Source: Fidelibacterota bacterium | GTDB taxonomy: Bacteria; Fidelibacterota; Marinisomatia; Marinisomatales; S15-B10 | NCBI GenBank assembly: GCA_046861655.1 | Contig: JBHIAI010000017.1 | Coordinates: 1 to 22,180 of the forward strand | DNA: 22,180 nucleotides | Reading direction: 5' to 3' | Part shown: one piece after another, positions 1,503 to 22,180 of the stretch | How positions within the stretch are numbered: position 1 is the stretch's first letter | Layout of the letters: every line of letters starts with the position of its first letter | The notes under the pieces: generated by a model | What the model was told of the DNA's origin: nothing | What the model saw: only the letters and a program-made list of their open reading frames with translations | Databases searched by the model: none | Position numbers and translations under genes: made by a program

Positions 1503-1523
1503 GTGTTATGAGTTATGCGTTAT
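1496..1523 (+). repeat. 4 x heptamer NNGTTAT at the mocA/xdhC junction
   Basis: ccgttat gtgttat gagttat gcgttat. Contains the mocA stop codon. Confidence 0.8.
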
Positions 1524-2153: not shown

Positions 2154-2168
2154 GGACCGATTTTCCTT

Positions 2169-2196
2169 AGGAGTGATAGGATATCCTACGCTCTTA
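2169..2196. repeat. Palindromic element, AGGAT...ATCCT family
   Basis: AGGAGTGATAGGATATCCTACGCTCTTA with perfect palindrome TAGGATATCCTA (2177-2188). Similar to 20749-20778. Confidence 0.5.
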
Positions 2197-5826: not shown

Positions 5827-5833
5827 GGGAATG

Positions 5834-5945
5834 TTATGCGTGATGCGTCATTCGTGATGCGTGATGCGTAATGCGTAATGCGTAATTCGTGATACGTAAT
5901 GCGTAATTCGTGATGCGTGATGCGTAGTGCGTAGTGCGTAATGCG
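5834..5945 (+). repeat. 16 x heptamer tandem array, consensus TRATGCG
   Basis: ttatgcg tgatgcg tcattcg tgatgcg tgatgcg taatgcg taatgcg taattcg tgatacg taatgcg taattcg tgatgcg tgatgcg tagtgcg tagtgcg taatgcg (112 bp, unbroken 7-bp register). Confidence 0.95.
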
Positions 5946-5977
5946 TGAGACTGCAGACGTTTAACGAACCTCATCAT
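5834..5977 (-). CDS. Putative 47-aa repeat-encoded bridging mini-ORF
   Basis: MMRFVKRLQSHALRTTHYASRITNYALRITNYALRITHHASRMTHHA*. Starts 8 nt after the upstream stop behind AGGAAG and ends 7 nt before the next ATG. Translation is unproven. Confidence 0.25.
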   Translation of the reverse strand: MMRFVKRLQSHALRTTHYASRITNYALRITNYALRITHHASRMTHHA

Positions 5978-5985
5978 CTTCCTGC

Positions 5986-7965
5986 CTACTGCCCACTGCC
6001 GCCTGCCGCCCGTTCCAGGCCCCTGAGGGCGTCTTTGGTGGAAAAAATCTCCTCAAGGTATTCAAGTTCAGAGGATGGACCCCCTTGTTCATCGATGAGC
6101 CGTTCGGCGATTTCCAGGGCCCGGGGCGCTCTTGACCGGATCCGTTTCACCAGGGGCCGCCATCTCTGGGACGGAAACTCCCCCGTCAGTAGACTGGACA
6201 CAGAATGGTCCTGGAAGAACGCTTCAACCTCCCGCCATTTGTCCCCCCTTTGAGCCCTCTTTTTCTTCACCTTACCCTTTCCCTCCACAATCTCCCGCAG
6301 TTCATTCCAGTCGATTATCCCATCGATGAGTCCTATCTCAAGGGCCTCCCTGACGGAAACCATCTGGCCGGTAAAGATGAGGAACTTGGTGAGCCCAGGG
6401 CCGATTCGCCGGGCCGTCCTCTGAGTTCCTCCCAAACCGGGATAGATACCCAACCCGGTCTCCGGAAAAGCAAACCGGGCGGACCCCAGTGCCAGCACCA
6501 TATCCGCTGTCAGAGCCAATTCCAGGCCTCCGCCCAGGGCAAACCCGTTGACTGCGGCAATGATGGTCTTGTCCGATCTATCAATCCTGTTGAACAGTCC
6601 CTGGACCTTCCGGGTGAATGTCACGATCTCACGGATACTCTGGGTACGGAGGCGATCCACAAAAAACTTCAGGTCTGCGCCAGCGGCGAAAGCCTTCCCG
6701 TACCCTGTGATCACGACAGTGTGCACCCGGTCATCCCCCTCGAGGCCCATGAAGGCCTCGGAAAGCTGGTCCACCACGGTGGGATTCAGGGCATTCAGAT
6801 CCTCCGGCCGGTTCAAGAACACCACCCCGGTTCCATCCCTTTTTTCCTGGGAGATGAAGGCTTGCTTCCAGCGGTCCCCTGACAGGGATTCCGGCACCCT
6901 TACCCGTCGGGAATGGCTCTCTGTCACGCGGCGAACCAGGTCGCGGACACCCGGTTCCCCGGTTTCCTGGTACAGTTCTCCGGGCCCCCGGCTCCACCTG
7001 AGGCCGATTCTTGCCCCCTGATTAAGATCCCTGACCGTGCAAACCTTTTCCTCCAACAACTGTCCGCAGGCAAAAAAGACTGCTCCCAGCAAGCGGTCCT
7101 CGATGGCCTTCCGGCGATCTGAATCCCCTGTCCGGTCAACTTCGATGGTCCATGGATCCCCTGCGCGGGCCTGACGCTCCAGGATTCCCGCCGGCCGGTA
7201 GAATGACCCAAAGGCCTCCCCCAGGGTCTGGCTCGCCTTGTAAGCGATGGACACCCCGGTGGCATTCATGAGAGCAAATGGACCCATACTGCACCCGAAT
7301 GTTTCGCAGGCCACCCTGTCGATCAAGCCCGTCTCTCCCAGTCCCTCTTCCACCATACGGGCCGCCTCGTTCAGCCACGGAACGAAGAACCGGTTCACCG
7401 CGAACCCGGGGCTATCCTTGCACACGATGGGATCCTTGCCACATCTGCGCATGAACCACAGGGTTTTCCGGAAGACGGTATCGTCTGTGGCTTTGCCTTT
7501 GACCACCTCCACCAGACGGTTCTTGGCTGCGTGATAGAAGAAGTGAAGGCCCAGGAACCGTTCCGGATGAGGAACGGACTTAGCCAAAATGGACACGGAA
7601 AACGACGACGTATTGGTCCCCACAACTGCGTCGCCGGCCACCGTTTCTCCCACCCTTGCCAGAAGGTCCTTCTTCACACCGAAATCTTCAAACACGGCCT
7701 CGATGACCAGCTGACACCCAGCCGTATCCCGCAAGTCGACCGTGGGCTCAATACGATTCACGATTTCAGCCGCCTGTTTCTCCGAAAACAGTCCCCGGTT
7801 GGTCCCTTCGTCCAGGGTCTCCTTGACCCTTTCCAATCCCCTTTTGAGAAAGCGGTCCTCCGTATCGACCATGATCACTTTCATCCCCTCCTGGGCGAAT
7901 TTCTGTGCCAGGGCCGAACCCATGGTCCCGGCTCCCACGATGCCCACGGTGCGTATCTCAGCCAT
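5986..7965 (-). CDS. 3-hydroxyacyl-CoA dehydrogenase / enoyl-CoA hydratase fusion (HAD N-terminal, crotonase C-terminal)
   Basis: True start MAEIRTVGIVGAGTMG at 7965. The longer ORF overlaps dch. Motifs IEAVFED, TNTSS, HFF, KDSPGFAVNR, then LNRPEDLNALN, AFAAGAD, GFALGGGLEL, PETGLGIYPGLGGTQR. 659 aa. Confidence 0.92.
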   Translation of the reverse strand: MAEIRTVGIVGAGTMGSALAQKFAQEGMKVIMVDTEDRFLKRGLERVKETLDEGTNRGLFSEKQAAEIVNRIEPTVDLRDTAGCQLVIEAVFEDFGVKKDLLARVGETVAGDAVVGTNTSSFSVSILAKSVPHPERFLGLHFFYHAAKNRLVEVVKGKATDDTVFRKTLWFMRRCGKDPIVCKDSPGFAVNRFFVPWLNEAARMVEEGLGETGLIDRVACETFGCSMGPFALMNATGVSIAYKASQTLGEAFGSFYRPAGILERQARAGDPWTIEVDRTGDSDRRKAIEDRLLGAVFFACGQLLEEKVCTVRDLNQGARIGLRWSRGPGELYQETGEPGVRDLVRRVTESHSRRVRVPESLSGDRWKQAFISQEKRDGTGVVFLNRPEDLNALNPTVVDQLSEAFMGLEGDDRVHTVVITGYGKAFAAGADLKFFVDRLRTQSIREIVTFTRKVQGLFNRIDRSDKTIIAAVNGFALGGGLELALTADMVLALGSARFAFPETGLGIYPGLGGTQRTARRIGPGLTKFLIFTGQMVSVREALEIGLIDGIIDWNELREIVEGKGKVKKKRAQRGDKWREVEAFFQDHSVSSLLTGEFPSQRWRPLVKRIRSRAPRALEIAERLIDEQGGPSSELEYLEEIFSTKDALRGLERAAGGSGQ

Positions 7966-7970
7966 GGTCT

Positions 7971-8747
7971 CTACCGGTTCTTCCACCGGGGGGGGCGCTT
8001 TTGAACGAAGGCGTCGATGCCTTCTCCGGCGTCGTGAGTGGACATAAGCTCTTCGAGATAGAATTTCTCCACGCTCTCCAGCTGGTTTCTCAAAACGCGG
8101 TTGAATTCCCATCGGGCAGCCTGGACTCCGTACCTCAACGAAGACGCACTCTTGGGGAGAATGTGTTCTCTGACCCATTTCTCCACCCCCGATTCCAGGG
8201 CCTTCCGGTCCTCAAACAGACGGGTTATGAGCCTCATGGAGGCCATCTCTTGAGCCGAAAATGTTTTCCCGGTCAAGATCACCTCATCGGCCCGGCTCTG
8301 CCCGATCTTCAGGGGAAGAATGAGGGAAGCCTGTGGGGGAAAAAGCCCGAGATTCATTTCGGGCTGTCCCAACCGGGCCGTCCCATCGGCAAACAAGAAA
8401 TTACACATCAAGGCCAGTTCCAGACCCCCTCCCAGACAGTTCCCGGACACCAGGGCCGCTGATGGAATGGCCAGATCCATAAGGGTAAGAAACAGCCCGT
8501 GAAATTGTTTCAGCATGGCCCCCGCCTGTTCACGCCTGTGCTCTGGAACACTGGCTCCGAAGCAGAAATGATCGCCGGCACCGGTCAATTGGACCAGCTT
8601 GATGTCCGGTTGGTCCCGGAGACCATTCAGGGCCCTTTGAAGCTCTTCCATCATAGGTCCATCAAGGATATTCCCCTTCGGGCGGTTCAGGATCAGGCGG
8701 ATCACCTGACCCTCGTTGAGAACTTTCTGGAGGATAGGGCCGGCCAT
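7971..8747 (-). CDS. dch: Cyclohexa-1,5-diene-1-carbonyl-CoA hydratase
   Basis: Crotonase family with RPKGNILD, HFCFGASVPEH, CLGGGLE, GQPE, SASSLR and YLEELMSTHDAGEG, resembling Thauera Dch. Next to oah and had. Confidence 0.9.
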   Translation of the reverse strand: MAGPILQKVLNEGQVIRLILNRPKGNILDGPMMEELQRALNGLRDQPDIKLVQLTGAGDHFCFGASVPEHRREQAGAMLKQFHGLFLTLMDLAIPSAALVSGNCLGGGLELALMCNFLFADGTARLGQPEMNLGLFPPQASLILPLKIGQSRADEVILTGKTFSAQEMASMRLITRLFEDRKALESGVEKWVREHILPKSASSLRYGVQAARWEFNRVLRNQLESVEKFYLEELMSTHDAGEGIDAFVQKRPPRWKNR

Positions 8748-8754
8748 TCGGATA

Positions 8755-9840
8755 TCACCGGGGCATGATGGCTTCGATCAATTCATCGTTCCAGGGGTGA
8801 CCTTCCGCGAGCATCCGGCGAAGTTTGGCGTAGTCCACCACCCGGTTGTCCTTGGGACCTTCGTGGAAGGCCCGGAATCCGGCCCTGGCTTCCGTCATCA
8901 TGTTCAGGGCCAGCCAGTCCCGGTTGGTCTGCTGGTTCCGGTCCCAGTGCTCCAGCTTCTTCTTTCTGAGACTGTTCAAAGTCTTGCTAAGACAGTCGGG
9001 CATGGTGGACAGCAGCTTGGTGCACATGACGTCAACAGCCCGGTCCAGGGGATCCAGATCGATGGTCCCTTCCGCCAGAGTCCTCTTTCCATCTTCCAGG
9101 GCACTCCCCGTTTTTCGTCTTCCGTAGACCAGCTCTCCCGAGTCGTCCAGCCACCGGTCCGTTATCACCAGGGGATTCCTCACAACCACGCCGTCTACGT
9201 TCAGGACCGGAACCGCCTGGGATATCAATCCGAAGGAGAGAGCCTCGTAGGCACTCCACAGCTCGCAGAGGGTACAGCTCTGCATGGCCCGCTCAATGCC
9301 CACATACAGGTGGAGAAAATCGGTGCTGCCGCCATCGGGGGCACTCCCGTGCTTCGGCCCGGCCTGACCGAAAACGGCCAGATCACTGGCCACGGAAAAG
9401 TCGCAGGCCATCCCCATTTCCTGTCCCCCGGCGATACGCAGGCCATTTACCCGGCAGATGACCGGTTTGTCGCAATGAAGGATGGAGGTGATCATGTCGT
9501 TGAACAGCCGCATGTACTGCTTGTACTCCAGGGGCCGGCCAGCGTAGTATTCGGCATATTCGGTGACGTTTCCGCCCGTGCAGAAGGCTTTGTCTCCCAC
9601 CGCAGACAGTACTACCGCCACCACAGAGCGATCCATGGAGGCCTGCCGGAAGCCCAGAATAATCTCTTTGACCGCCTGGGTTGTGTAGGAGTTATACTGC
9701 TTCGGGTTGTTCAGGAATATCCAGGCATTGTACAGACCTTCCACGGGCTCCCCGCTGGAATCCAGACAGGGACGAACCTCATACAGAATCTCCGAGAACT
9801 CCCTCTCCACCAGATTGTGGCTTACCAGATCATATTTCAT
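8755..9840 (-). CDS. oah: 6-oxocyclohex-1-ene-1-carbonyl-CoA hydrolase (Oah/BamA)
   Basis: NNPKQYNSYTT, AFCTGGN..EYAEYYAG, QYMRLFNDM, FGQAGPKHGSAPDGGSTDFL and WLALNMMTEA signatures. Confidence 0.95.
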   Translation of the reverse strand: MKYDLVSHNLVEREFSEILYEVRPCLDSSGEPVEGLYNAWIFLNNPKQYNSYTTQAVKEIILGFRQASMDRSVVAVVLSAVGDKAFCTGGNVTEYAEYYAGRPLEYKQYMRLFNDMITSILHCDKPVICRVNGLRIAGGQEMGMACDFSVASDLAVFGQAGPKHGSAPDGGSTDFLHLYVGIERAMQSCTLCELWSAYEALSFGLISQAVPVLNVDGVVVRNPLVITDRWLDDSGELVYGRRKTGSALEDGKRTLAEGTIDLDPLDRAVDVMCTKLLSTMPDCLSKTLNSLRKKKLEHWDRNQQTNRDWLALNMMTEARAGFRAFHEGPKDNRVVDYAKLRRMLAEGHPWNDELIEAIMPR

Positions 9841-9856
9841 GGGTATTGTACACTCC

Positions 9857-9962
9857 GTTATGCGTTATGGGTTATGCGTTCGACGTTTGATGTTCGACGT
9901 TCAGATCTCAACCTTAACCTCAACCTGCCTCCCGTCTCCTTTCTCCGGTCTCCGGTCTCCGT
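9857..9962 (+). repeat. Mosaic of short tandem repeats in the had-oah spacer
   Basis: 7 heptamers in one register (gttatgc gttatgg gttatgc gttcgac gtttgat gttcgac gttcaga, 9857-9905), 3 hexamers CTYAAC (9907-9924), 5 heptamers of TCTCCGG type (9928-9962). Confidence 0.88.
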
Positions 9963-9965
9963 TTT

Positions 9966-11039
9966 TCATACATCCGGCACCAGGACCGGTCTTTTCACGA
10001 TCCTCTCTCCAGGATCCTCGGGCGGCACCACCAGTCGCTGGAATACGGAATTGATCTCCGACAGGGGATACGACTCGGTAAACGGAGCTATGGTGACCTT
10101 CTCATCGGCCACCAGTTTCACAACATCCGGAAACAGTTCGGGCTTACAGCCCCAGGTACCTATTACTTCGGCGTCAAAGGCCATGAGGTTACTGAGCCGC
10201 ACCTCCACCTTGTCCAGGGTGAATCCTACGATGGAAAGGGTTCCGGCAGTGCCCAGGAGGGCAAACGCCAGTTCCTGCCCCTCGCCGGTACCGGACACTT
10301 CATAGATTTTCCAGCTGTGACTGGGAGCGCCTATCTCGCCAGCCAGGTCCTTAACCTTTTTCTTCACTTCTCTCACATCCAGGTCCCGGTTATTCACCGT
10401 GGCGGCTGTTCCAATCTCCCCAAGACGGTCCAGTCGCTCCTGGGAGATATCGATGGCCACCACCTTCGCCCCCAGTACCTGCGCCAGTTGGGCAGCATAG
10501 ATCCCCACTCCCCCCACTCCGATCACTACCGCAAGGTCCCCGGGCTGGAGGTCACTTTTTGCCATCACCTGGTAGGGCGTCGACACCGCATCGGAAATGA
10601 CGGCCAATTGGGCCAGGGAATGTTTGCCCAGAAGATCGTCCGGGACCGGGCACAGGAACCGGGCCGGGACCACCACGTGGGTGGCAAAACCCCCGTGGAA
10701 GTCGTTCCCGGGCATCACCTGATTCCGGCAGATGTTGCTTCTCCCCCTCCGGCACAGGTCGCATGTTCCGCAGGGGAGAACGGCCGGCACGATGACCGGT
10801 TTCCTGTTGAGGGAGGACTGTCCTTCCACCACCCTACCGCTGATTTCGTGCCCCAGGATGAGAGGGAGCTCGTGCCGGGTGGGGACACCGTAGTGCCAGA
10901 AACTCAAATCTGTATGACACACGCCACATCCGGCAACCTCCACCAGAACCTGGTCCTCCTTGAGTTCCGGAACAGGATACGAGACCTTTTCAAGGGGCCT
11001 GTCAGGAGCGATCATCTGATACCCTGTTATCCGGGTCAC
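9966..11039 (-). CDS. had: 6-hydroxycyclohex-1-ene-1-carbonyl-CoA dehydrogenase (Zn-dependent MDR)
   Basis: VAGCGVCHTDL, LGHEISG, PAVLPCGTCDLC...IC, MPGNDFHGGFA, RLSNLMAFDA..GTWGC. GTG start with GAGG upstream. Confidence 0.93.
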   Translation of the reverse strand: MTRITGYQMIAPDRPLEKVSYPVPELKEDQVLVEVAGCGVCHTDLSFWHYGVPTRHELPLILGHEISGRVVEGQSSLNRKPVIVPAVLPCGTCDLCRRGRSNICRNQVMPGNDFHGGFATHVVVPARFLCPVPDDLLGKHSLAQLAVISDAVSTPYQVMAKSDLQPGDLAVVIGVGGVGIYAAQLAQVLGAKVVAIDISQERLDRLGEIGTAATVNNRDLDVREVKKKVKDLAGEIGAPSHSWKIYEVSGTGEGQELAFALLGTAGTLSIVGFTLDKVEVRLSNLMAFDAEVIGTWGCKPELFPDVVKLVADEKVTIAPFTESYPLSEINSVFQRLVVPPEDPGERIVKRPVLVPDV

Positions 11040-11041
11040 GG

Positions 11042-12307
11042 TTATTCCTCGAGATTCGTGTTCTCCACCAGGATGGCAGTTCCCTGTCCTCCCCCCACGC
11101 AGGCCGAGGCGATCCCGTAGCGGTCTCCCCTCCTTTGTAACTCCAGGGCCAGGGTCAGGGTCAGACGTGTACCTGTGGCCGCCAGGGGATGACCGATGGC
11201 AATGGCACCCCCGTTCACATTCATCCGGTCGCGGTCGATTCCCAGTTCCCTCTCCACGGCGATAATCTGGCTGGCGAAGGCTTCGTTGATCTCGAACAGA
11301 TCGATCCTGTCCAGAGACAGTCCCGACACGTCCAGCAGTTTCCGTATGGCAGGAACGGGACCGATGCCCATGAACCGGGGGTCCACCCCTGTGGATGCCG
11401 ACGCCATCACCCGGGCCAAAGGGGTGACCTTTTTCGTTTTCACAAAATCCTTCGAGACAACCACCACCGCCGCTGCCCCATCCACAATACCGCTGGAATT
11501 CCCCGCGGTTTGAACCCCGTCCGGATCGAAAACAGGGGGCAGTTGAGCCAGCTGTTCCAGATCGGTTTTCCGGATGCTTTCATCCTTGTCCAGCTGGCCC
11601 CCCGACGGGTTGGTCTGGTAGGGCCTGGGTCGAAAGCCCTCCATTTCCAGGACTCCCGACGCCACGGTCACCATCTCTTCCGACAGCACCCCGTTTCCGC
11701 TGGCCGCCGTGGCCAGGGTGTGGGACCGGAGGGCATAGGCGTCGGCCTCCTCCCGGGTGATCCCGTGCTTGCGGGCCAGATTCTCCGCCGTCTGTCCCAT
11801 GGACAGTTCCACTGCCGGATCCTTCAACCCCTCCCACAACATATCTCCAAACTGGAGCTGCCCCAGCCTGTATCCCAACCGGTTTCCGAAGGACGAGGTA
11901 GGGGCCCGGGTCATGTTCTCGCTTCCTCCCGCCAGTCCGGCCCTTCCCTTCCCCAGGACTATCTGTTCCGCCGCTGAAACGATGGCTTCGAATCCCGAGC
12001 CGCAGATGCGTTGCACCATCATGGCGGGAACGGACGGGGGAATACCACAGTAAAGTCCTACGTGCCGCGGCAGGTAGATGGCGTCGAATCCCGCCTGGAT
12101 GATATTGGCGAAGACAACGTGATCGATGTCTTCCGGATGGATTCGACACCGCCTGATCGCCTCCCGACCGACAACGATGCCTAGATCTGTGGGAGAGACA
12201 GTCCCCAGGGTGCCGCAGAACTTGCCAAAGGGGGTGCGGACCCCTCCCAACAGATAGACGTCGTCGTAGCAGGCGGCAGACCCGTAGTGAGTAGGAGAAT
12301 CAGGCAT
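11042..12307 (-). CDS. Thiolase (acetyl-CoA C-acyltransferase)
   Basis: RTPFG, QRICGSG, NEAFA, GHPLAATG and SACVGGGQG catalytic motifs. Start set at ATG 12307, overlapping the activase stop by 8 nt. Confidence 0.93.
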   Translation of the reverse strand: MPDSPTHYGSAACYDDVYLLGGVRTPFGKFCGTLGTVSPTDLGIVVGREAIRRCRIHPEDIDHVVFANIIQAGFDAIYLPRHVGLYCGIPPSVPAMMVQRICGSGFEAIVSAAEQIVLGKGRAGLAGGSENMTRAPTSSFGNRLGYRLGQLQFGDMLWEGLKDPAVELSMGQTAENLARKHGITREEADAYALRSHTLATAASGNGVLSEEMVTVASGVLEMEGFRPRPYQTNPSGGQLDKDESIRKTDLEQLAQLPPVFDPDGVQTAGNSSGIVDGAAAVVVVSKDFVKTKKVTPLARVMASASTGVDPRFMGIGPVPAIRKLLDVSGLSLDRIDLFEINEAFASQIIAVERELGIDRDRMNVNGGAIAIGHPLAATGTRLTLTLALELQRRGDRYGIASACVGGGQGTAILVENTNLEE

Positions 12308-13070
12308 CGCGGGCCAGAATGGCCGCCCCCTGGGCCACCGCGTACAGGGGATTGGAAAAGACGGTGACATCCACGCCCAGATTCTCTGCCAGCAAATCTC
12401 CTATGTAGCCGTGGAAGGCGATGACCCCTCCACACAGAAACACGGGAAGATCCGTGCGAACGGGCAGCTTGCATATGCGGTTCACGATGGACAGGTAAAT
12501 GCCCCGGGCCATATCTTCAATGGGAACACCGTCAAATTTCCACCCCAGGATTTCTGTTTTGGCAAACACGGTGCAAAAACTGTTGATCACTCTGTCAGAA
12601 GACGATTTCCGGGCCAGATCACTCATTTCCTCAGGTTCCATTTCCGCCTTTTCCGCAATCTCCGTGATGAAGGCACCTGTGCCTGCGGAACACTTGTCGT
12701 TCATGTAAAAGCTTTCCACCTCGCCCCGGGGACCGCTCCGGATTATCTTGATGTCTTCCCCGCCGATATCGATGATGGTTTTCGGGAAGGGATGCCCGTC
12801 TGAGACACCCGCGGACGCGCAGATCAATTCTGTTTTCTTAAGAGCACTGTCCAGGGTATCCCGTCCGTATCCCGTGCTGCAGGTGCCGGCAATACCGAAG
12901 TGATCCTGAATGTCGTCCAGAACTTCCTGAAAGGTCTCCCGCCGGCGGGTCAAGGTGGGAATCACCTTCCGGTAGCAGGCCTCTCCTTTTGAATCCACCA
13001 CCACAAACTTGGTGTACAAAGAACCGAGATCGACACCGAGATAATGACCGTTTTCCCGGCTTTCCATCAT
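12300..13070 (-). CDS. 2-hydroxyacyl-CoA dehydratase activase (HgdC/FldI/HadI-type ASKHA ATPase)
   Basis: GVDLGSLYTK, STGYGR, IDIGGEDIK, MNDKCSAGTG and INSFCTVFA (two [4Fe-4S] Cys), CGG. Single 256-aa module. Confidence 0.92.
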   Translation of the reverse strand: MMESRENGHYLGVDLGSLYTKFVVVDSKGEACYRKVIPTLTRRRETFQEVLDDIQDHFGIAGTCSTGYGRDTLDSALKKTELICASAGVSDGHPFPKTIIDIGGEDIKIIRSGPRGEVESFYMNDKCSAGTGAFITEIAEKAEMEPEEMSDLARKSSSDRVINSFCTVFAKTEILGWKFDGVPIEDMARGIYLSIVNRICKLPVRTDLPVFLCGGVIAFHGYIGDLLAENLGVDVTVFSNPLYAVAQGAAILARDA

Positions 13071-13073
13071 CCC

Positions 13074-14018
13074 TTAGGGGTGGGTTATCCGTTTCTCCAC
13101 CAGCCGGATTAATGCCGCAAGGGTACCGTTGGTGGGTGTGGCAACGCCGTGCCTTTTGCCATACTCCACGATTTTCCCGTTCAGATGATCAATCTCGGTG
13201 GGGAGACCCTTTTCCACATCTACAAGCATGGAAGGCCGGTGCCGGCCTCCCTTTTTCATGTAGTCGAGAGCCTGATCCCGGAATCCCTCTGGCAGGTGGA
13301 TACCTTCCTTTCCCGCCACCTCAATACCCTCATCCAGGATGGCGGTCACCGTTTCCACTCCGAAGGCCGTTTCCATGACATCCTCCATAGTCAGTCCAGT
13401 CAGAGCCGACACGGGACACAGGGCTGCGTTCATGATGGCCTTGGTCCACACATGAACCCGGATGTCCCCGGGGATTTGGGTTTTCAGTCCAACGGAATTG
13501 AGCAGGCCCACCAGTCTTTGGGCCAGCAACTCCCCGTGGTCCGACAGGGGAGCCAGGTAATTGGGAGGGTTAAAGAATGTCACGTCCACTGTGTTCAAGT
13601 CTTCCATGCTGCCCGCATAATTGATCACCATCCTCAGGGTGCGGTCTCTCCCGAACACCCTTGCCACCTCTTCTTCATTGTCGATGCCGTTCTGGGCGCT
13701 CATGACAAACAGCGAGGGGGACGCCACCGGCAATAACTCCTTAAGAACCCGTTTCAGGTAAGGGGTCTTTACCGAGATGGAAACCAGGTCCAGATCGTGC
13801 CCTCCCAGTTCGGTGACGGAATAGCACGTTTTGGCCACTTTCACCTGTTTCTCGATGGCATTTACCAGGCGAATCCCCGAATCCCGTATCCGGTCTGTTT
13901 TCTCCCGTACGACGTCGCAGGCCACCACCCAGGCTCCAGCGTCCGCGAAATGAGCGGCCAGAATACTCCCCACGGGACCCATCCCGACTACACCGATCTT
14001 TAACGATGCATTGTTCAT
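13074..14018 (-). CDS. Ketopantoate reductase (PanE/ApbA) family 2-oxoacid reductase
   Basis: GMGPVG Rossmann motif, ISVK, AQNGID, WTKAIMN, RPSMLVDVEKG.PTEIDHLNG and PTN motifs. Asp at the end of beta-2 (VACD). Confidence 0.88.
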   Translation of the reverse strand: MNNASLKIGVVGMGPVGSILAAHFADAGAWVVACDVVREKTDRIRDSGIRLVNAIEKQVKVAKTCYSVTELGGHDLDLVSISVKTPYLKRVLKELLPVASPSLFVMSAQNGIDNEEEVARVFGRDRTLRMVINYAGSMEDLNTVDVTFFNPPNYLAPLSDHGELLAQRLVGLLNSVGLKTQIPGDIRVHVWTKAIMNAALCPVSALTGLTMEDVMETAFGVETVTAILDEGIEVAGKEGIHLPEGFRDQALDYMKKGGRHRPSMLVDVEKGLPTEIDHLNGKIVEYGKRHGVATPTNGTLAALIRLVEKRITHP

Positions 14019-14021
14019 GAT

Positions 14022-14168
14022 TTAACCACAGAGCCACAGAACATGATCCATGCAAAATGCAAAGTCCAGAGTGCAAAACCCAAAATCGGACGTGGCATCC
14101 GGTGAGTAAGCCGCTGAGAGGGGTCCGCGATGGATAACTTTTTCACTTTTACATTTTTCAATTTTCAT
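14022..14168 (-). CDS. Putative 48-aa bridging mini-ORF / remnant of an inserted element
   Basis: MKIEKCKSEKVIHRGPLSAAYSPDATSDFGFCTLDFAFCMDHVLWLCG*. ATGA overlap with the upstream stop, and TAA-ATC-ATG junction to the PanE-like gene. Confidence 0.3.
   Translation of the reverse strand: MKIEKCKSEKVIHRGPLSAAYSPDATSDFGFCTLDFAFCMDHVLWLCG
14026..14167. repeat. Imperfect inverted heptamer arrays plus octamer doublet
   Basis: ccacagag ccacagaa (14026-14041). tgcaaaa tgcaaag tccagag tgcaaaa cccaaaa (14051-14085). Opposite-sense tttttca cttttaca tttttca attttca (14139-14167). Confidence 0.7.
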
Positions 14169-15361
14169 TCTGCCTTGAGTTGTTCGATAAAGGTTTCCAG
14201 CTTGGTCCGGTTCTGCCCATCGGAGAAAAACCGGAGGTCGTTGAGGTCCCCGTCAATCACCAGGGTGTCGACCCCTGTCTCCTCCTGAAGCCGCCCCGGG
14301 AGACCGAACCGGCTATTGGTGTTGTTGAAACAGGTCTTCGAATCATGGAAGACGACTCCGTCCACGCCGTAATCCTCTACCATCTGTTTCATCACAGACA
14401 GTTTGGTGTTCTCACCCCGGTTGATGAAAATCTGGGTGAAGGCATAGGCCATGGATTCCACGGGTTTGTCAGGGTCAAAGTCCTCAAAAATCCAGCTGTT
14501 ACAGTAGGTGGACGCCACCACCGCAGCCCCGTTCTGGGCAAAGATTTCCGACAGGAACCTGAGTCTTCCCCACACGGGCATGCCGTCCCAGTAGATGCGC
14601 ACCCGTTCGTCTTGTACGGCCGGAATGCCGTCTTTTGTCCGGCGGTTCAATTCGTCCAGGAGATTTCTGTAGAAGTCCACGCACACCCGGGTTCCCCGGA
14701 GCACCACAATGGGAGCCATCAGGATGGTCCCGTCAAAAAAGGTGAGGGGAGCTGGAGAATTCTGAGCCGTTTCAAGCACTCTGGCCCACAGCGTCGAGGC
14801 CTCATGACCCAGGCGCACGGTTTCCACCAGTCGGTCCGGATCCAGGGGATGCCCCACCACCTCCTCCCCCGCCAGAATCAATTCTTCCAGCTGGGCCACA
14901 ACGTGATCAATATCGGCCTGGCTTATCTCTTCCAGGTACCGGGGAGGGAATACCCCCGCCACAGGGCAGTCAAATTCCCGGCCGAAATAGTTGAACCATT
15001 CCGCCACTTCCCGGCACTGGTTGGTATTGTAGACGATAAGGTCGGGATGAGGAATCGATGGGAGTCCGTACGCCACGGTCAGGGGCGTTTCCCTGAGAAG
15101 CCACGCTCCGATGTCGCTGGTAAGGTAGGAACAGATCTCGCTGTCGTATCCGGCCTGATGGGCTCTGGGAATGGTTCGCTCGGTAAGACGCTTGGCCCCC
15201 AGGATAGCGCCATGATTCTCGGGGAAATAGACATTGAATCCCAGGGCACGGAGGATCTCCGCCGGTCCGGCACTGCTGCACCAGGCCACGGGGGAGGTCA
15301 GATGGGTATAGTAGTCCTGCAGAAGACCGTTCAGCAGGGTCTGGGATTTCAATCGGGGCAT
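14165..15361 (-). CDS. 2-hydroxyacyl-CoA dehydratase family alpha-type subunit (HadB/FldB-like)
   Basis: VAWCSS...FPENHG, three Cys (EICSY, TNQC, SKTC), RIYWDGMPVW, DGVVFH and IDGDLND motifs. 398 aa. Confidence 0.88.
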   Translation of the reverse strand: MPRLKSQTLLNGLLQDYYTHLTSPVAWCSSAGPAEILRALGFNVYFPENHGAILGAKRLTERTIPRAHQAGYDSEICSYLTSDIGAWLLRETPLTVAYGLPSIPHPDLIVYNTNQCREVAEWFNYFGREFDCPVAGVFPPRYLEEISQADIDHVVAQLEELILAGEEVVGHPLDPDRLVETVRLGHEASTLWARVLETAQNSPAPLTFFDGTILMAPIVVLRGTRVCVDFYRNLLDELNRRTKDGIPAVQDERVRIYWDGMPVWGRLRFLSEIFAQNGAAVVASTYCNSWIFEDFDPDKPVESMAYAFTQIFINRGENTKLSVMKQMVEDYGVDGVVFHDSKTCFNNTNSRFGLPGRLQEETGVDTLVIDGDLNDLRFFSDGQNRTKLETFIEQLKAE

Positions 15362-15417
15362 ATCTTAGCAGTACAGGATTCGAACAGAATCGAATTTAGA
15401 AGCCAAATCCTGCCCTC

Positions 15418-17202
15418 CTACTCCAGACTGATGACGTACACCTTCCCAACACGCCCTCCCGGTTCATCGAGGGATCCGGACAGATCGTCCTCGTTATCGG
15501 GTTTCGACCCGTACAGACGTTCGATGTCGGCTTTGAACACCTTCCCCACCACATTCGGCGCCAGTTTCATGGAGGGAGTCAATTCCTGGTTTTCGATGGT
15601 CAACTGTCTGTCGAGAAGCATGGTGGAGCCCAACCGGTAATAGGGAATATTCAGGGCCTGGTTCAGTTCCCTTAAACAGGTGCGAAGACACCGGGACAGT
15701 TGCTCGAGACTTCGCGGCCGACGGCATCCCTTTTTCAGCCGCCCTTCATCGGGCATCTGGGAAAACATGGACTTATTGGGAAACAGCAGCGCCACCGGGT
15801 AATCCCGTCCGCTTCCCGCCACGAAGGCGTGGGAAAGAAAGGCGCAGTCTTTCACGATCAAATTCTCAATTTCCGTCGGTACAACCATCTCTGCGTTGGA
15901 GAGCTTGAACATGCGGTCCTTCCGGGATATGAGCCGAAGTCCCTGTTCGGTGAACTCCCCCACGTCTCCTGTCCGGAACCAGCCGTCTTCGGAGAGAGCT
16001 TCCCGGGTGGCCTCCTCATTCTTGAAATACCCCTTCATGACGTTGGGACCTTTCACCAGGATCTCCCCGTCGTCGGCCAGTCTTACTTCAACCCCAGGGA
16101 TGGGTTTACCCACGACCCCCCGTTTCCGGGGCAGATTGGGATCGGTGACGGTGCAACAGGGTGAAGTCTCAGTCAGCCCCCATCCTTCAACCACCGGAAT
16201 TCCCCGTTCCTCAAAGATTCTGGATATGTTCTCCGGAAGCGGTGCCGCGGCCGTAAAAACGAACCGTAACCCCTCGTGAAAAATGACCCTGTCCACGGCC
16301 CTGTCCTGAAGGGCCCGGGTGACCAGTTCCTGGTAGATCCGGGGTACGCTGAAAAAGACGGTAGGGTGAACTTTTTCCCAGTTCTCGAGCAGGGCGTCGG
16401 TATTCTTCCCGTACCCGTTTTCCAATGACAGTACCGCACCGTTGGTGATGGCGGCGTATTTTTCGAAGATGCCCCCGAAACTGTGGTGCCAGGGCAGATA
16501 CGACAGAAACCGGTCCCTGTGACTCAGCTTCCACAGAACCCTCATGGCCGACTGCTGCGACAGAATATTTCCGTGGGTCAACTGAACACACTTAGGTCTC
16601 CCCATGGTGCCCGAAGTGTACATCATGAGAGCCACAGCACCGGAAGAAACCCCGGTCCCTTTGATCTCCCCGGGGGTTCCGTCCGACTCCAGGAGTTCCC
16701 TGAAGGGAATCAGGTTGCCGGTTCCCGGGCTATCCAGGGGATCGAAATGAACGATACCGGCAAAGTCCCCGGGTGAGCTCAGTTTGTCGTACTGCTCCTG
16801 ATCGGACACCGCCACCAGGGTGGGTTCACAGAACCTGACCAGGCTGTTCGCCCTGGCCCCCGGATAGCCGGCAAAAATGGGCACGGAAACGGCCCCCATG
16901 GCCATGACAGCCAGTTCCGTTTCCAGCATTTCCTGGCGGTTTCGGGAAAGGATGGCCACCCGGTCGCCTTTCTTCAGACCGAGCCGGGCCAGGAAAGTCT
17001 GGATGGAGGCCACCTCCTTCTGAAACGCCGACCAGGAAAGGGGCACATACCTTCCGTCTCTCACCTCCTGGTAGATAGGGCTCTGGTCAAACTTGTGGGC
17101 GTTTTCGTTGAGCATGACGGCCAGGTTCCGGGGGTATTCCGGAAGGGAATGGTCAGACCGGAAAACCGTGGGGATTCTCACGCCTCCGCTAAACTGATTC
17201 AT
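15418..17202 (-). CDS. AMP-forming acyl-CoA ligase (long-chain FACS-like)
   Basis: YTSGTMGRPK, SYLPWHH, EGWGLTETSP, GPNVMKGY, WFRTGDVG and ELTPSMK motifs. Start set at ATG 17202 (14-nt overlap with bcrD). Confidence 0.9.
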   Translation of the reverse strand: MNQFSGGVRIPTVFRSDHSLPEYPRNLAVMLNENAHKFDQSPIYQEVRDGRYVPLSWSAFQKEVASIQTFLARLGLKKGDRVAILSRNRQEMLETELAVMAMGAVSVPIFAGYPGARANSLVRFCEPTLVAVSDQEQYDKLSSPGDFAGIVHFDPLDSPGTGNLIPFRELLESDGTPGEIKGTGVSSGAVALMMYTSGTMGRPKCVQLTHGNILSQQSAMRVLWKLSHRDRFLSYLPWHHSFGGIFEKYAAITNGAVLSLENGYGKNTDALLENWEKVHPTVFFSVPRIYQELVTRALQDRAVDRVIFHEGLRFVFTAAAPLPENISRIFEERGIPVVEGWGLTETSPCCTVTDPNLPRKRGVVGKPIPGVEVRLADDGEILVKGPNVMKGYFKNEEATREALSEDGWFRTGDVGEFTEQGLRLISRKDRMFKLSNAEMVVPTEIENLIVKDCAFLSHAFVAGSGRDYPVALLFPNKSMFSQMPDEGRLKKGCRRPRSLEQLSRCLRTCLRELNQALNIPYYRLGSTMLLDRQLTIENQELTPSMKLAPNVVGKVFKADIERLYGSKPDNEDDLSGSLDEPGGRVGKVYVISLE

Positions 17203-18037
17203 GTTCCAATCCTGCACTCCTGAGTTTGAGGTACCGGTACCCGCCCCACAAGGCGGCTCCGATCGCTCCGGCCAGGGCACATTGCTCCGCGGCAAACACC
17301 GTCACGTTCATGTTCTTTTCATCCATCAACTCTTTGATAGCGTCCACGATACCCACATCATGGGCCATCCCGCCGGTGAGAGCCACGGGGGATTCAACTT
17401 TGAGTTTTCTCAAAAGGGCGATCACGCGGCGGGCGATGGACAGATGAATGCCCTTGACGATGTCCGCGGTGGCGATGCCCTGTGAGACCATGTTGATGAC
17501 GTCCGTCTCCGCCAGGACAGCACAGATGCCGCTGGTCCTGGCGGGCTGGGTCGACTTCCGCGACAGGGGTCCCACTTCCTCAAGGGTGAGACCGAGGTAA
17601 CGGGAAATGTTTTCCAGGAATTGACCCGAACCCGAGGCACACTGTCCGGTCATGGTGTATCTGCGGACCCGGGGACCGTTCTCCAGGGTCATGGCCCGGG
17701 TAAACAGGGCACCCAGGTCCACCACCCCCCTGATGTCCGGATGGTAGTGGTAGGCTCCCCGGGCATGAGTGGTCATGCTGTAAAAGTGGCCCGTCTTTCT
17801 GGGAACCAATTCCCCCTCACCCGTGGAGGCCACGTAGACGAGATCCTCATACGAAAGGCCTTGACGCTCTAGCAGCTCGTCCACCACCTTTTCGATGACC
17901 AGGGTAGGGTTTCGCTTGCGGATCTTTTCATTGATCGTATCCACTACGGTGGAGGGATCCCCGTATTGGGCCAGGGCAGCCTTGATGAAGCTGCTTCCCA
18001 CGTCGATGCCTAACGTAAGGTGATTGTCAGTCCCCAT
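17189..18037 (-). CDS. bcrD: Benzoyl-CoA reductase subunit D
   Basis: STGEGE, GHFYSMTTHARGA, QCASGSGQFLENI, ICAVLAETDVINMVS and AGAIGAALWG match BcrD/BadG. Confidence 0.95.
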   Translation of the reverse strand: MGTDNHLTLGIDVGSSFIKAALAQYGDPSTVVDTINEKIRKRNPTLVIEKVVDELLERQGLSYEDLVYVASTGEGELVPRKTGHFYSMTTHARGAYHYHPDIRGVVDLGALFTRAMTLENGPRVRRYTMTGQCASGSGQFLENISRYLGLTLEEVGPLSRKSTQPARTSGICAVLAETDVINMVSQGIATADIVKGIHLSIARRVIALLRKLKVESPVALTGGMAHDVGIVDAIKELMDEKNMNVTVFAAEQCALAGAIGAALWGGYRYLKLRSAGLEHESV

Positions 18038-18039
18038 AA

Positions 18040-18145
18040 TCCTGTCACCCTGAGCCTCTTCCTGTGACCCTGAGCCTGTCGAAGGGTGACCCCATCAGAA
18101 CCGTCCGGCTCATTGTAAGTCATGCTTCGTCAAGCTCAGCATGAC
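18040..18145. repeat. REP-like inverted pair with partial 20-bp duplication
   Basis: GTGACCCTGAGCCTGTCGAAGGGTGAC (18064-18090) and GTCATGCTTCGTCAAGCTCAGCATGAC (18119-18145) are inverted relatives, 20/27 identical by hand alignment. tcctgtSaccctgagcct is repeated at 18040 and 18060. Confidence 0.75.
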
Positions 18146-19457
18146 GGGAAGGATGACGGCCCTCATCCTGTCGCCGGGAACTGAAAATGGCAGCCCCCAG
18201 GGCTCCCATGAAAATAGAGTCGGGGTGAACGTTGATGGTCACGTCCCCGTAATTGTCCTGAACCATCTGGTTCACGTATTTCACCACGGCATCATTCCTT
18301 GCCACGCCACCCGTGAAGGTGAATTCGTCTCGCACGCCGCCGGACCGGGCAAGGAGGGAAAACGCCCTCTGCACGATGGCTTTGTGAAGTCCGGCCAGGA
18401 TGTTTTCCTGTTTCTCTCCCAGATTCAGGTATTCCCTCAGTTCGGCCCCGGCAAAGACTGTACAGGTGCTGCAGATGTTGGATTCGTATTCAGCATCCAG
18501 GGCCATGGGACCCAGTTCGGTAACGCTCATGCTCATCTCGTCTGCGATATACCCCAGATACCGGCCGCAGCCGGCGGCGCATCGATCGTTCATCTGGAAA
18601 CTGGTGACAAACCCATGCCGATCCACCTGAATGGCCTTCGTGTCCTGACCGCCGATATCCAGAACGGTGCGGGTCCGCGGAAAACAGGCATGAGCCCCCA
18701 GGGCATGGCACAGAATCTCCGACTTTATGTGGGTCTGGTCAAAAGGAAGGAGCTGCCGGCCGTAGCCCGTTCCGATATAGTCGGCCGGTTCCAGACTCAC
18801 GGTGGCGGCATCCTCCAAAAAGCCGGCTACAACCGACCACGATTCGTCCATCGTTTCAGGAAGAATACCCAGGGCCCTGTCTGTGAGTTCCGCGAAATCG
18901 AAATCGATGACCATGTTTTCCACTCCCACGATGGAACGGTCGTAGAGGGCGGTCAGCTGGTCGAAGAGATCCTTTGGGAGATCCTCGATATGTTTGAGAT
19001 AGCCTTCACCGAAGAGGTCACGGAAGAATTCCATCCTCGTGCCCCCGCCTTCCGCGAAAAGTTTCTTTTTCGCGTTGTCCTCAATCAGGGGCTCAACCCG
19101 GTCCAGGTGTGACAGGATATTCCTCCGGACCGGCCCGTCCGGCATGTCTCCAGCCTTTCTTCTCATCACGTCCATCAACCGCTGAAACCGCTCTCTGAAT
19201 TGAAGATACCGGAATCTCCCCTCGAGACCGGAGAAAACTTCCTTCCAGTTACTGTGGTCTGCTTCAGAGGCCTCCACCTTACGTCGAAGGAGAGTGAAGC
19301 GGGAATTGAATTCCCCCTCCATCCGGGCGATCTCCGCCGCCACCTCGTAGTCCGCCCGGGTGTTGGTGATCCCCCGGCCTATGATTTTCCCCCTGTCATC
19401 CATGTACACGGCTTTGGATGTGGTGGAACCCAGGTCGATTCCCAGATAGACCTTCAT
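18120..19457 (-). CDS. bcrA: Benzoyl-CoA reductase subunit A
   Basis: True start MKVYLGIDLGSTTSKAV at 19457 (ATGA overlap with the bcrB stop). Motifs GRGITN, FFRD, SEILCH, FQMNDRCAAGCGRYLGYIADEM and STCTVFAGAELR. 445 aa. Confidence 0.95.
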   Translation of the reverse strand: MKVYLGIDLGSTTSKAVYMDDRGKIIGRGITNTRADYEVAAEIARMEGEFNSRFTLLRRKVEASEADHSNWKEVFSGLEGRFRYLQFRERFQRLMDVMRRKAGDMPDGPVRRNILSHLDRVEPLIEDNAKKKLFAEGGGTRMEFFRDLFGEGYLKHIEDLPKDLFDQLTALYDRSIVGVENMVIDFDFAELTDRALGILPETMDESWSVVAGFLEDAATVSLEPADYIGTGYGRQLLPFDQTHIKSEILCHALGAHACFPRTRTVLDIGGQDTKAIQVDRHGFVTSFQMNDRCAAGCGRYLGYIADEMSMSVTELGPMALDAEYESNICSTCTVFAGAELREYLNLGEKQENILAGLHKAIVQRAFSLLARSGGVRDEFTFTGGVARNDAVVKYVNQMVQDNYGDVTINVHPDSIFMGALGAAIFSSRRQDEGRHPSRHAELDEA

Positions 19458-20743
19458 GCTGCCGCTTTCTCCCTGGAACCCAGGGAAATGCGCTGCTCGA
19501 GCATCTGAAAGAATGAATCGAGACGGTTCTTGATATTGGAATAGGAATAGTAACGGGGATCCACCAGGTCCGTTTCGATGAATCCCACCGGTATTCCCAA
19601 CCGTTCCTCCAGGTTTCGCATCATCACCAGCTGCCCCACAGAAAAGGAATTGCAGCTCTTTATGGAGTTCACCAGCAGTCCGTCGGCGTGGTAGGCGGTG
19701 ATGAACCGTTCCAGCAGGTCGATTCGCCGCGGAAGGTTCCGATTGGTGTAACACCCCAGACAGTACTGGGCCAGATTCACCAGAGGGTTCCGGGAGGAAT
19801 GGCGAAACCCGTCGTCGTACACCCCTCCCACGCGGGTATAGGTCGAACCCACGAAAACGGCACCCAGATCGTAGAAAATCTTCCAGAAGTCCCGGAAATG
19901 AGTCCAGTTGGGCGGTCCCTCCACCACCAGACGGTAGCGTTCTTCTTCAAGCACGCCCTCGGGAGTGATGGGACCCGTGCCCCCTTTCACCCTCCCGGTC
20001 ACCTCCTCCAGGAGTTCTTCGTAGTACTCCACGCAGGCCTGACTACCCCGGAACGAGGTGAAAATGGGACCGATGTAATAGACACCGCCGAAATAGGCGT
20101 CAATGGGAGAGGGGCGATGGCGGGCGGACTCGAACACCTCCACCAACAGGTCCTCCGCCCGGCCTGAAAGATCCAGTTTTTCTGAAAGGGTGTCCATGTC
20201 CAGTTTCTTCCCCGAAACCTTCTCCAACTTCGGAATCACTTCCCTTTGAAGCTGATCCACAATATAGGTGACGGCCCCGGAATCCACTCCGTCCCCGTCC
20301 ATGTAAGGAATATGCAGCATGGCAATCTCTGCACCGGGATAGAGGTGTTTGAGGTTTTCGAACCACTTCATGAACACAAAACATCCGGTGTAGCTCAACA
20401 GAAGAAGGTCGGGAGGGGGGAGCCTCTGCCCCGTGGGACCGGTATTGCCCTGGAGCATCATGCCGATATCACATTTCACGTAGGAGCAAACATCCTCCGA
20501 AAACCCTCTTTCCTCCGCCTCCCGGATGTAGTCCCGTGATTTCTGTCTCATGCCGGACTGAAGGGCGTTGATCTCGGGGTAAACGGGGAGCATACCAAAA
20601 GCTGATATCAGTTCGGCCAGATTCCCGGGGACAAAGGTATAGACCACCTTGGTTCCCGTTTCCTTCACCTGGGAGAGGGCCATGAAGTGATCGGCCAGCA
20701 TCCTTTTCTGCCGGATCATGCTGTTTTCTTTTTGAATCTTCAT
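19454..20743 (-). CDS. bcrB: Benzoyl-CoA reductase subunit B
   Basis: TFVPGNL, SEDVCSYVK, LLLSYTGCF.FMKWFE, PSPIDAYFGGVYYIGP, VVEGPPNW and SIKSCNSFS match BcrB/BadE. Confidence 0.95.
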   Translation of the reverse strand: MKIQKENSMIRQKRMLADHFMALSQVKETGTKVVYTFVPGNLAELISAFGMLPVYPEINALQSGMRQKSRDYIREAEERGFSEDVCSYVKCDIGMMLQGNTGPTGQRLPPPDLLLLSYTGCFVFMKWFENLKHLYPGAEIAMLHIPYMDGDGVDSGAVTYIVDQLQREVIPKLEKVSGKKLDMDTLSEKLDLSGRAEDLLVEVFESARHRPSPIDAYFGGVYYIGPIFTSFRGSQACVEYYEELLEEVTGRVKGGTGPITPEGVLEEERYRLVVEGPPNWTHFRDFWKIFYDLGAVFVGSTYTRVGGVYDDGFRHSSRNPLVNLAQYCLGCYTNRNLPRRIDLLERFITAYHADGLLVNSIKSCNSFSVGQLVMMRNLEERLGIPVGFIETDLVDPRYYSYSNIKNRLDSFFQMLEQRISLGSREKAAA

Positions 20744-20745
20744 CC

Positions 20746-20775
20746 CTCAGGAGTGCAGGATCAATCCTGCACCCC
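20746..20775. repeat. Palindromic element in the bcrC-bcrB spacer
   Basis: GTGCAGGAT-CA-ATCCTGCAC (20753-20772). 20746-20761 is the exact reverse complement of 17209-17224. Confidence 0.65.
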
Positions 20776-21945: not shown

Positions 21946-22180
21946 CGGGCTCCTCCCCATTGGATTTCTGCCAGATCCGGTTGAGCATCCCCCGGAACTG
22001 TCTCAGCTGTTCCGGGGTCAGGACGCTGACCAGGTCACTGTCCACGGAGGTGGCAATTTCGTCCATACGACCAAGCAGTCTGCGTCCCTTGGGTGTGAGA
22101 TACAGTCTCACCACCCGCCGGTCGGACGAGGTTCGCCTCCGCTGGACCAGTCCATCCTTTTCCAGCCTGTCTGCCAGTCC
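21935..22180 (-). CDS. MarR family transcriptional regulator (5'-truncated by window edge)
   Basis: Manual translation: GLADRLEKDGLVQRRRTSSDRRVVRLYLTPKGRRLL...LTPEQLRQFRGMLNRIWQKSNGEEPGGP*. Shows the winged-helix DRR and LTxxG motifs. Its stop overlaps the start of bcrC. Confidence 0.9.
   Translation of the reverse strand, partial: GLADRLEKDGLVQRRRTSSDRRVVRLYLTPKGRRLLGRMDEIATSVDSDLVSVLTPEQLRQFRGMLNRIWQKSNGEEPGGP

Follow-up and report, generated by a model that had tools for sequence, protein, structure and literature searches.

Families of short mobile repeats such as ERIC, RUP and Correia duplicate a TA dinucleotide on insertion and overlap stop codons. Comparable systems have been described. 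Bacterial miniature inverted-repeat transposable elements (MITEs) are folded units of 70-300 nt that have terminal inverted repeats, lack a transposase and lie beside coding sequences (PMC3733652), and ERIC/RU units carry open reading frames (ORFs) and fuse to genes (PMC2759123). GTAG REP ends often supply the TAG of flanking ORFs (PMC3733652), BOX elements provide 36 pneumococcal genes with their stop codon (PMC3049150), and heptameric repeats are in excess in bacteria (PMC4692102). Short ORFs have been linked to translation across such inserts: the MIRU is a short junction repeat whose internal ORF is proposed to keep the next gene coupled (PMC12548453), and in integrons a short ORF across attC and ORF-11 of attI1 relieve a hairpin block by termination-reinitiation (PMC8876359). 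Here we describe the long spacers of an anaerobic benzoyl-CoA degradation operon in a 22,180-nt stretch of DNA from a Fidelibacterota bacterium (assembly GCA_046861655.1, contig JBHIAI010000017.1; the whole stretch is called the window). An initial annotation of this DNA had proposed that mini-ORFs relay ribosomes across these spacers. We consider it likely that the long spacers are insertion scars of small mobile repeats, including a TA-ended palindromic element (hereafter TA element), and that the mini-ORFs are not needed for the inserts to persist.

The genome holding the window is labeled G000, its sister genome G001, and further relatives G003, G016 and so on; C denotes a contig. The operon and its repeats are located as follows.

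741..21960, minus strand: host operon for benzoate degradation, with the same gene order in relatives.
20748..20777, minus strand: 30-nt hairpin copy of the TA element between bcrC and bcrB (z -4.25).
18035..18160, minus strand: REP-like hairpin repeat between bcrA and bcrD, with 10 other loci in the genome (hairpin z -4.17).
17182..17222, minus strand: left half of the TA element in the bcrD 3' end, which ends bcrD with its stop codon and carries an ATG in the ligase reading frame.
15366..15420, minus strand: 55-nt internally deleted copy of the TA element in the ligase stop codon (hairpin -18.4 kcal/mol, z -1.7).
14019..14169, minus strand: empty inverted heptamer-arm pair between the dehydratase and panE-like genes (arms 14137-14169 and 14050-14086), holding ORF 14168-14022 (48 aa).
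9841..9965, minus strand: four stacked short-period arrays between had and oah (9929-9961, 9907-9926, 9877-9902 and 9856-9880), with ORFs 9969-9901 and 9923-9858.
5827..6010, minus strand: heptamer arm 5981-6010, a linker and a 16-unit array (5836-5946), holding ORF 5977-5834.

The TA element is 277-283 nt at full length and is present in G000 in 28 copies of 25-283 nt, three of them in the window, with many deleted forms. Its interior consists of two nested modules. Its terminal inverted repeats have 18-nt arms, in which 526 of 540 positions are paired over 30 full-length copies, with the register optimised per copy, and the arm sequence varies. The ligase-dehydratase junction reveals how a copy was inserted. 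In G001 this junction reads stop TAA, GAG and ATG, and the window carries 53 extra bases within that TA. The left TAG of the 15366..15420 copy is the present ligase stop and its right TAA is the old one, and ORF 15406-15365 lies inside the copy. Since the empty site in G001 shows insertion inside the TA of the stop, the TAA-GAT-ATG that ends this ORF is the ancestral stop and spacer. Exact TA duplication was observed in three filled/empty pairs against G001 (ligase-dehydratase, C44:10855 and C59), and two further pairs (C113 and C4) are compatible with it; the search covered 231 orthologous junctions drawn from about a quarter of G001. The called stop lies exactly at a terminal TAG in 14 of the 28 copies, each with two ends available, compared with 11.5% of the 4634 TAGs outside gene interiors.

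These observations suggest the following course of events. The original junctions would have been tight or overlapping, and small non-autonomous repeats would have entered them. The TA element would enter the TA of a TAA or TAG stop and duplicate it, as seen in the filled/empty pairs, after which the upstream gene would end on an element-derived TAG and the old stop would reappear just before the next ATG. Inserts would be found at stop/start junctions because these are among the few sites that leave both genes intact. The remaining copies in the window are shorter: 20748..20777 yields GTG-CAG-GAT-TGA and the TTG-started ORF 20764-20747, and at the bcrD 3' end G001 carries a copy of 25 nt in the same place. 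Elsewhere, a single copy provides both stops of a convergent gene pair (G000 C44:20164-20191; L102 in G213).

Among 201 genomes of the class, the TA element was found in G000 and G001 only, apart from one weak match, and a loose look at 250 other genomes of the phylum, with two candidates scored per genome, did not find it. It is also present in distant phyla, in one gammaproteobacterial, two Patescibacteria-type and one further genome. Full-length TA-type elements with extra internal inserts of 30-100 nt were seen at L090, L093, L104 (G212) and L089 (G214), and the TA-type element at L101 is nested inside another inverted-repeat element. Rfam gave no near-cut-off match to the element, except for a tRNA in its flank. 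Its 91-codon frame had no relatives among proteins of 50-160 aa and no Pfam match. No IS630-family transposase (DDE_3) was found in the five carrier genomes, which are incomplete and in which, Y1 aside, other families were not searched; Y1 transposases occur in all five, none flanked by the TA element. We found no literature on the element itself in a search that left subscription journals largely outside.

The heptamer arrays point to a second source of insertions. In relatives, the same junctions are tight, are occupied by four-helix-bundle cassettes, intact or broken, that have inverted heptamer arms, or contain just an empty arm pair. TIGR02436 genes, which encode the four-helix bundle, lie at bcrC-bcrB, bcrA-bcrD and activase-had in G016, and a broken one lies at bcrA-bcrD in G003; in most relatives the gaps at these junctions are -4 to a few bases. 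The copies at bcrC-bcrB and bcrA-bcrD on G016:C45 and at bcrA-bcrD on G003:C98, a genome of another family, are closely similar cassettes, all apparently broken. Within the window, inverted period-7 arms are present at one host stop/start junction (14137-14169 and 14050-14086), the other spacers hold mixed single arms, and no TIGR02436 gene lies between arms. The four TIGR02436 genes elsewhere in G000, together with one GxxExxY gene, lie between host genes and are flanked by the same short-period families. A period-7 array is present on at least one side of 13 of 31 TIGR02436 loci (14 scored, one N-masked match dropped), against 4.6% of 1455 genes in a control drawn from G000 only. We infer that the window arrays are empty or stacked remnants of such cassettes. 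We found no literature linking four-helix-bundle genes with heptamer arrays, again with subscription journals largely outside the search. A 53-aa ORF in the had-oah spacer of G032 was considered as a GxxExxY remnant, gained no support from NCBIfam or pairwise comparison, and is not claimed.

In G001 the dehydratase-panE junction is a GTGA overlap, and the arm family of 14019..14169 also flanks a four-helix-bundle gene of G001 (L187). The 5827..6010 spacer is only 20 nt in G001, and its sequence matches at 36 other loci; the upstream gene here ends in sequence rewritten by arm 5981-6010, its TAG included. The had-oah spacer is a 49-nt remnant in G001 and ranges from 13 to 623 nt among 11 relatives. 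In relative G009, had itself is interrupted by about 380 nt (C92, L028). The ATGA ends of upstream genes would be relics of -4 overlaps or part of the repeat sequence. Of six such ends before heptamer spacers, five are paired with a downstream ATGA, against 13 of 39 at non-repeat spacers, as expected if the overlap was duplicated. ATGA was not enriched before heptamer spacers (6/25 TGA stops against 39/219 at other long spacers, p 0.30).

The REP-like hairpin at bcrA-bcrD lengthens BcrA by about 15 residues, and its conserved end provides the ATGA. Among 10 relatives, 6 have an ATGA overlap at this junction. REP and REPIN repeats are linked to a Y1 tyrosine transposase; the bcrA-bcrD repeat had no match at 12 Y1 loci, and it does not lie beside the single free-standing GIY-YIG gene. 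At G000 C181:5750-5810 (L162), a small GIY-YIG gene is followed not by REP hairpins but by a sequence that we take to resemble a tRNA 3' end.

The dispersed repeats and the empty sites in G001 support one of the two explanations offered in the initial annotation, in which the inserts are what is left of small mobile elements. The spacers would be recent insertions, of three dispersed kinds of repeat. In five host proteins the C-terminus has been rewritten by repeat arms, and several of their stop codons are repeat-derived; four of the five proteins were compared with G001.

Rewritten C-termini: hbd, 5986-6010; mocA, 1506-1530; panE-like, 13074-13090; bcrA, 18120-18165; bcrD, 17189-17222.

The other explanation rested on the mini-ORFs. 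All of those listed are present with the positions and lengths reported, and all three TGA-ended genes before long spacers (had, dehydratase and bcrA) do end in ATGA. ORF 18123-18010 has its stop 28 nt inside bcrD (start 18037) and is thus no stop-to-start bridge; another ATG-started ORF of 22 aa, with +6 entry and +7 exit, is the better bridge there. ORFs 15406, 20764 and 9923/9911 require TTG starts, the first two begin 11 nt past the upstream stop, and the had-oah ORF chain stops 17 nt short of oah. PMC10666635 gives -8 to +6 as the window for reinitiation, with a drop of 40-80% at +14 nt, and we applied this window at both ORF ends. A single ORF then bridges one of the six spacers, that of 14168-14022 with its -4 and +3 geometry, and the bcrC-bcrB spacer holds a two-step chain of 3 and 5 codons. 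Two further long spacers of the window, 2154-2185 and 582-740, hold no bridge; the latter is an additional stack of heptamer arrays downstream of xdhC. Under three further rules, the two looser of which were derived from the examples of the initial annotation, 3/9, 5/9 (intermediate) and 6/9 long window spacers are bridged.

The mini-ORFs are mutually unrelated, their coding scores are negative or near zero, and none of seven tested matched Pfam above cut-off. The remark that several downstream genes lack a clear Shine-Dalgarno (SD) sequence is correct to the extent that a well-spaced strong SD precedes none of the six; this lack is the norm in the genome, where 65% of genes after non-repeat spacers have no SD motif. 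An SD of at least 4 nt precedes 166/479 genes after non-repeat spacers, 23/71 after unbridged and 3/13 after bridged repeat spacers. The downstream genes would mostly initiate alone without an SD, as about two thirds of the genes that follow long spacers appear to do. Sigma-70-like promoters numbered 5, against 7.0 in shuffles, with none in the six spacers. A weak terminator-like hairpin (14101-14087, minus strand) lies within ORF 14168-14022 (48 aa) in the dehydratase-panE spacer, and translation of this ORF could mask it.

Whether such bridges exceed chance was assessed on 563 co-directional spacers of 25-350 nt, 84 of them repeat-bearing and 50 with heptamer arrays. The frame-shift null leaves each sequence as it is except for the removal of 1-2 internal bases, and its figures are given in pairs. 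Genome-wide, ATG-only bridges occur in 15/563 spacers, against 18.0 in dinucleotide shuffles. The composition-shuffle check proposed earlier does give an apparent signal when three start codons are allowed, with 6 of the 50 heptamer spacers bridged against 2.2 in shuffles, but this signal is absent against frame shifts (7.1/7.8). Since shuffling destroys the periodicity of stop-poor arrays, the shuffle result is a false positive, and composition and dinucleotide shuffles, which inflate the signal, were rejected as the deciding null. Under other rules the heptamer spacers gave 2 bridges against 2.6/2.1 and 16 against 14.2/15.0, and in the -8 to +6 window 2/50 against 3.5/3.2. Other repeat spacers gave 0/17 in that window. 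Stop density in heptamer spacers is equal on both strands (0.038 and 0.042).

Relatives gave a similar picture. When G000 was pooled with parts of G016 (365 kb) and G003 (321 kb) and period-7 arrays were selected by another filter (n=42), 3, 8 and 14 spacers were bridged against 2.0/1.3, 6.7/4.8 and 12.8/12.8 (p 0.12-0.18; p 0.12 for 8/42). In the orthologous operons of 12 relatives, with 35 spacers of 25-400 nt, the three rules gave 3, 6 and 18 against 5.1/3.4, 9.0/8.2 and 16.4/14.5 (p 0.80, 0.92 and 0.042), and 29 of the 35 lack a strict bridge. The proposal that inserts persist only where termination-reinitiation is preserved fails on these counts, since even a rule as loose as that of the initial annotation leaves 34/50 heptamer spacers of the genome and 17/35 spacers of the relatives unbridged. 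Bridge counts as high as those of the window were reached in some run of nine long spacers of the genome in 19%, 53% and 99% of permutations. Because the genome and the relatives' operons are mostly unbridged and the richness of the window is matched elsewhere, bridging is not a condition of persistence. The mini-ORFs would follow from inherited ends and stop-poor periodic sequence.

Several results weigh against the insertion-scar explanation. The window is rich in bridges when matched for length (P 0.0006, 0.003 and 0.02 under the three rules). The loosest rule reached p 0.023 in the 31 period-7 spacers of G000 itself and, as given above, p 0.042 in the relatives' operons. Bridges outnumber the frame-shift null in non-repeat spacers too (44 against 35.7/26.8). 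This excess is located in gaps of 25-50 nt (32 against 17.5/18.0) and includes three ORFs that we presume to be ribosomal L36, L31 and S14; we argue that it reflects null bias and missed small genes. The null is probably low because junctions with a near-stop start in frame with the next gene are called tight. Start-compatible (non-CTGA) TGA stops are more frequent before heptamer spacers (21/25 against 136/219, p 0.022), which fits relics and selection equally. Gene starts came from our own caller, which weighs the SD in choosing them, and at least three starts in the window are misplaced. No mobilising enzyme was found, with IS630, RAYT and a GIY-YIG partner looked for. Finally, the length of the TA element is 1 mod 3 in 18 of 28 copies (p 0.0008), which simple deletion models do not explain.

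This last point favors an alternative that covers the TA family only, and in the window two of the six spacers, both degenerate: the element of this genus may be MIRU-like, with frame-keeping copies and deletions better tolerated. This is compatible with the insertion-scar explanation, and we regard it as a tentative addition to it. At the left end of the element a GTG lies 2 nt past the TAG, and a length of 1 mod 3 puts this GTG in frame with the terminal TA. Conceivably, a ribosome would stop at the left TAG, restart at the GTG or alternatively at an ATG 17 nt on, with AGGA 7 nt upstream of it, read through the hairpin, and finally terminate at the duplicated stop, which lies 1-6 nt ahead of the next gene. 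The length bias also appears in 12/18 distinct lengths (p 0.004), in 10/15 distinct deleted lengths (p 0.009), and in 14/24 copies of a catalogue built blind to frame (p 0.010). The length list was compiled by hand. It includes one length inferred for a copy that is cut off where its contig ends, and it excludes two uncertain pairs of 24 and 317 nt, neither of which is 1 mod 3. Microhomology spacing is almost flat mod 3. The A-to-B frame of the element is open in 8 of 11 copies longer than 50 nt. Stops in one strand's frame number 1 against 5.2 expected (p 0.018), with 14 against 11.1 on the opposite strand, and sense-oriented copies have 1 stop against 4.4 expected (p 0.039). In the -8 to +6 window, 6/18 spacers with the element are bridged against 0/2.1 shifted and 1.3 shuffled. 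In G001, where only the left arm remains at bcrC-bcrB, no start other than the GTG of the element precedes the conserved QKE of bcrB. Half or short copies whose GTG is in frame with the next gene were seen at this junction (G001:C30, L040), at L048 and at G000 C89:9470-9495.

Other results speak against a MIRU-like element. The reversed copies on C8, C44 and C123 persist with a closed sense frame, and the sense frame of all nine copies has 4 stops against 6.3 expected (p 0.20); ten copies longer than 50 nt between co-directional genes are oriented seven one way and three the other. There is no synonymous excess in the element frame (25/106 against 0.27 expected), and no protein relatives were found. 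The ligase-dehydratase copy of the window has lost both the GTG and the ATG. In four other lineages only 7/26 copies are 1 mod 3 and 4/26 have an open frame, with the terminal stem retained, and none of five evaluable junctions there has a strict bridge. The TA family was singled out post hoc among several groups, its copies share ancestry, and the numbers are small. The MIRU-type trait, an internal ORF with coupling at either end in the majority of copies, was not found in the TA element (6/18), heptamer spacers (2/50) or other repeats (0/17). Judged from sequence alone, it is possible, though we hold it at well below even chances, that a cross-phylum, stop-codon-targeting, MITE-like element acquired a built-in translational bypass in this genus, made of the TAG, the GTG and a stop-free frame. 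Internal deletions would then be filtered to multiples of three with the peptide unconserved, and the GTG could be captured as a host start, as perhaps in bcrB of G001.

Coupling across the TA element might also occur with no mini-ORF. The stop of the upstream gene is located at the base of the terminal stem and the next start just past the opposite arm, so that a ribosome reaching this stop would open the stem and make the start behind it accessible. An RNA-unfolding model of translational coupling has been described (PMC12548453), and two features agree with it, the arms that stay paired though their sequence varies and the stop at the left end in half of the copies. However, mobility of the DNA or gene conversion would account for the paired arms just as well, the mod-3 bias is not explained by this model, and the same source reports that structure right after the stop lowers coupling. 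We consider this explanation unlikely. The general relay, in which every repeat-bearing operon spacer is kept solely because a mini-ORF relays ribosomes, draws on the five of nine bridged window spacers, the geometry of 14168-14022 and the missing strong SDs, but is highly improbable and largely refuted by the unbridged spacers in the relatives' same operon, along with the one-in-six single-ORF fit, the unrelated and non-coding ORFs, the SD lack of the genome at large, and the linker ATG of ORF 5977, which lies uncoupled in two other copies (29 and 117 nt from the upstream stop).

The host operon lies on contig C197 of G000, a 2.06-Mb genome (93% complete) with 1898 called genes and 91% coding. 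Its head consists of bcrC-bcrB-bcrA-bcrD (class I benzoyl-CoA reductase), followed by a CoA ligase, a dehydratase subunit, a panE-like gene and an activase; its middle of a thiolase, had, oah, a dch-like gene and a 3-hydroxyacyl-CoA dehydrogenase/hydratase; and its tail of xanthine-dehydrogenase-family FAD and Mo/FeS subunits (4-hydroxybenzoyl-CoA reductase-like), a mocA-like and an xdhC-like gene. Gene names are from NCBIfam, with bcrB, bcrC, had and oah above cut-off and the remainder sub-cut-off best matches or broader families. One further array lies near the operon end.

1498..1523, minus strand: heptamer array over the mocA end and the xdhC start; the xdhC ATG of G001 is absent here.

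In the xdhC-like gene (1523-1424, minus strand), the first GTG (1424) is preceded by about 25 conserved codons, which follow the mocA stop (TAA-CAC-ATA) in frame; an AUA start, readthrough or truncation is possible. Contigs of runs X2 and X3 cover this place with 0-1 differences. The DNA sequencing runs containing the stretch are metagenomes from hydrothermal vents, all from a single study, and no RNA run was among the sequencing runs listed. Joints at the spacers in the DNA contigs of these runs most likely originate in other copies of the repeats and were disregarded.

For method, the spacers show that shuffled repeat spacers make relay ORFs seem enriched, and that coupling-like geometry can arise from mere target-site duplication, as frame-shift controls and empty sites reveal. 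If the frame bias is real, it would offer a route for selfish hairpin DNA to settle in tightly coupled operons with expression uncut, and the in-frame, shifted and reversed copies of the TA element would form a natural series on reinitiation across structured inserts.

Compared with known systems, the TA element resembles the MITEs ERIC/RU, RUP and Correia/NEMIS in being short, folded and gene-adjacent with terminal inverted repeats and no transposase inside, and differs from them in its nested two-module interior, the lack of an Rfam match and its cross-phylum occurrence. REP and BOX repeats supply stop codons, as the repeats do here, and the bcrA-bcrD repeat differs in having no Y1 or GIY-YIG neighbor. 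The four-helix-bundle (TIGR02436) cassettes share arm families and junction position with the window arrays and occur whole at orthologous junctions, whereas the window holds scars, empty arms with no TIGR02436 gene. The attC and attI1 ORFs are integron-borne and experimentally tested; the window ORFs are known from sequence, with no integron. The MIRU is the published form of the ribosome-relay idea. A MIRU enters at a start codon and couples at -4, whereas the TA element inserts at stop codons with its GTG at +2, has long terminal repeats, and bridges just 6 of 18 spacers. If the built-in bypass is real, the TA element would be the stop-codon-targeting counterpart of MIRUs.

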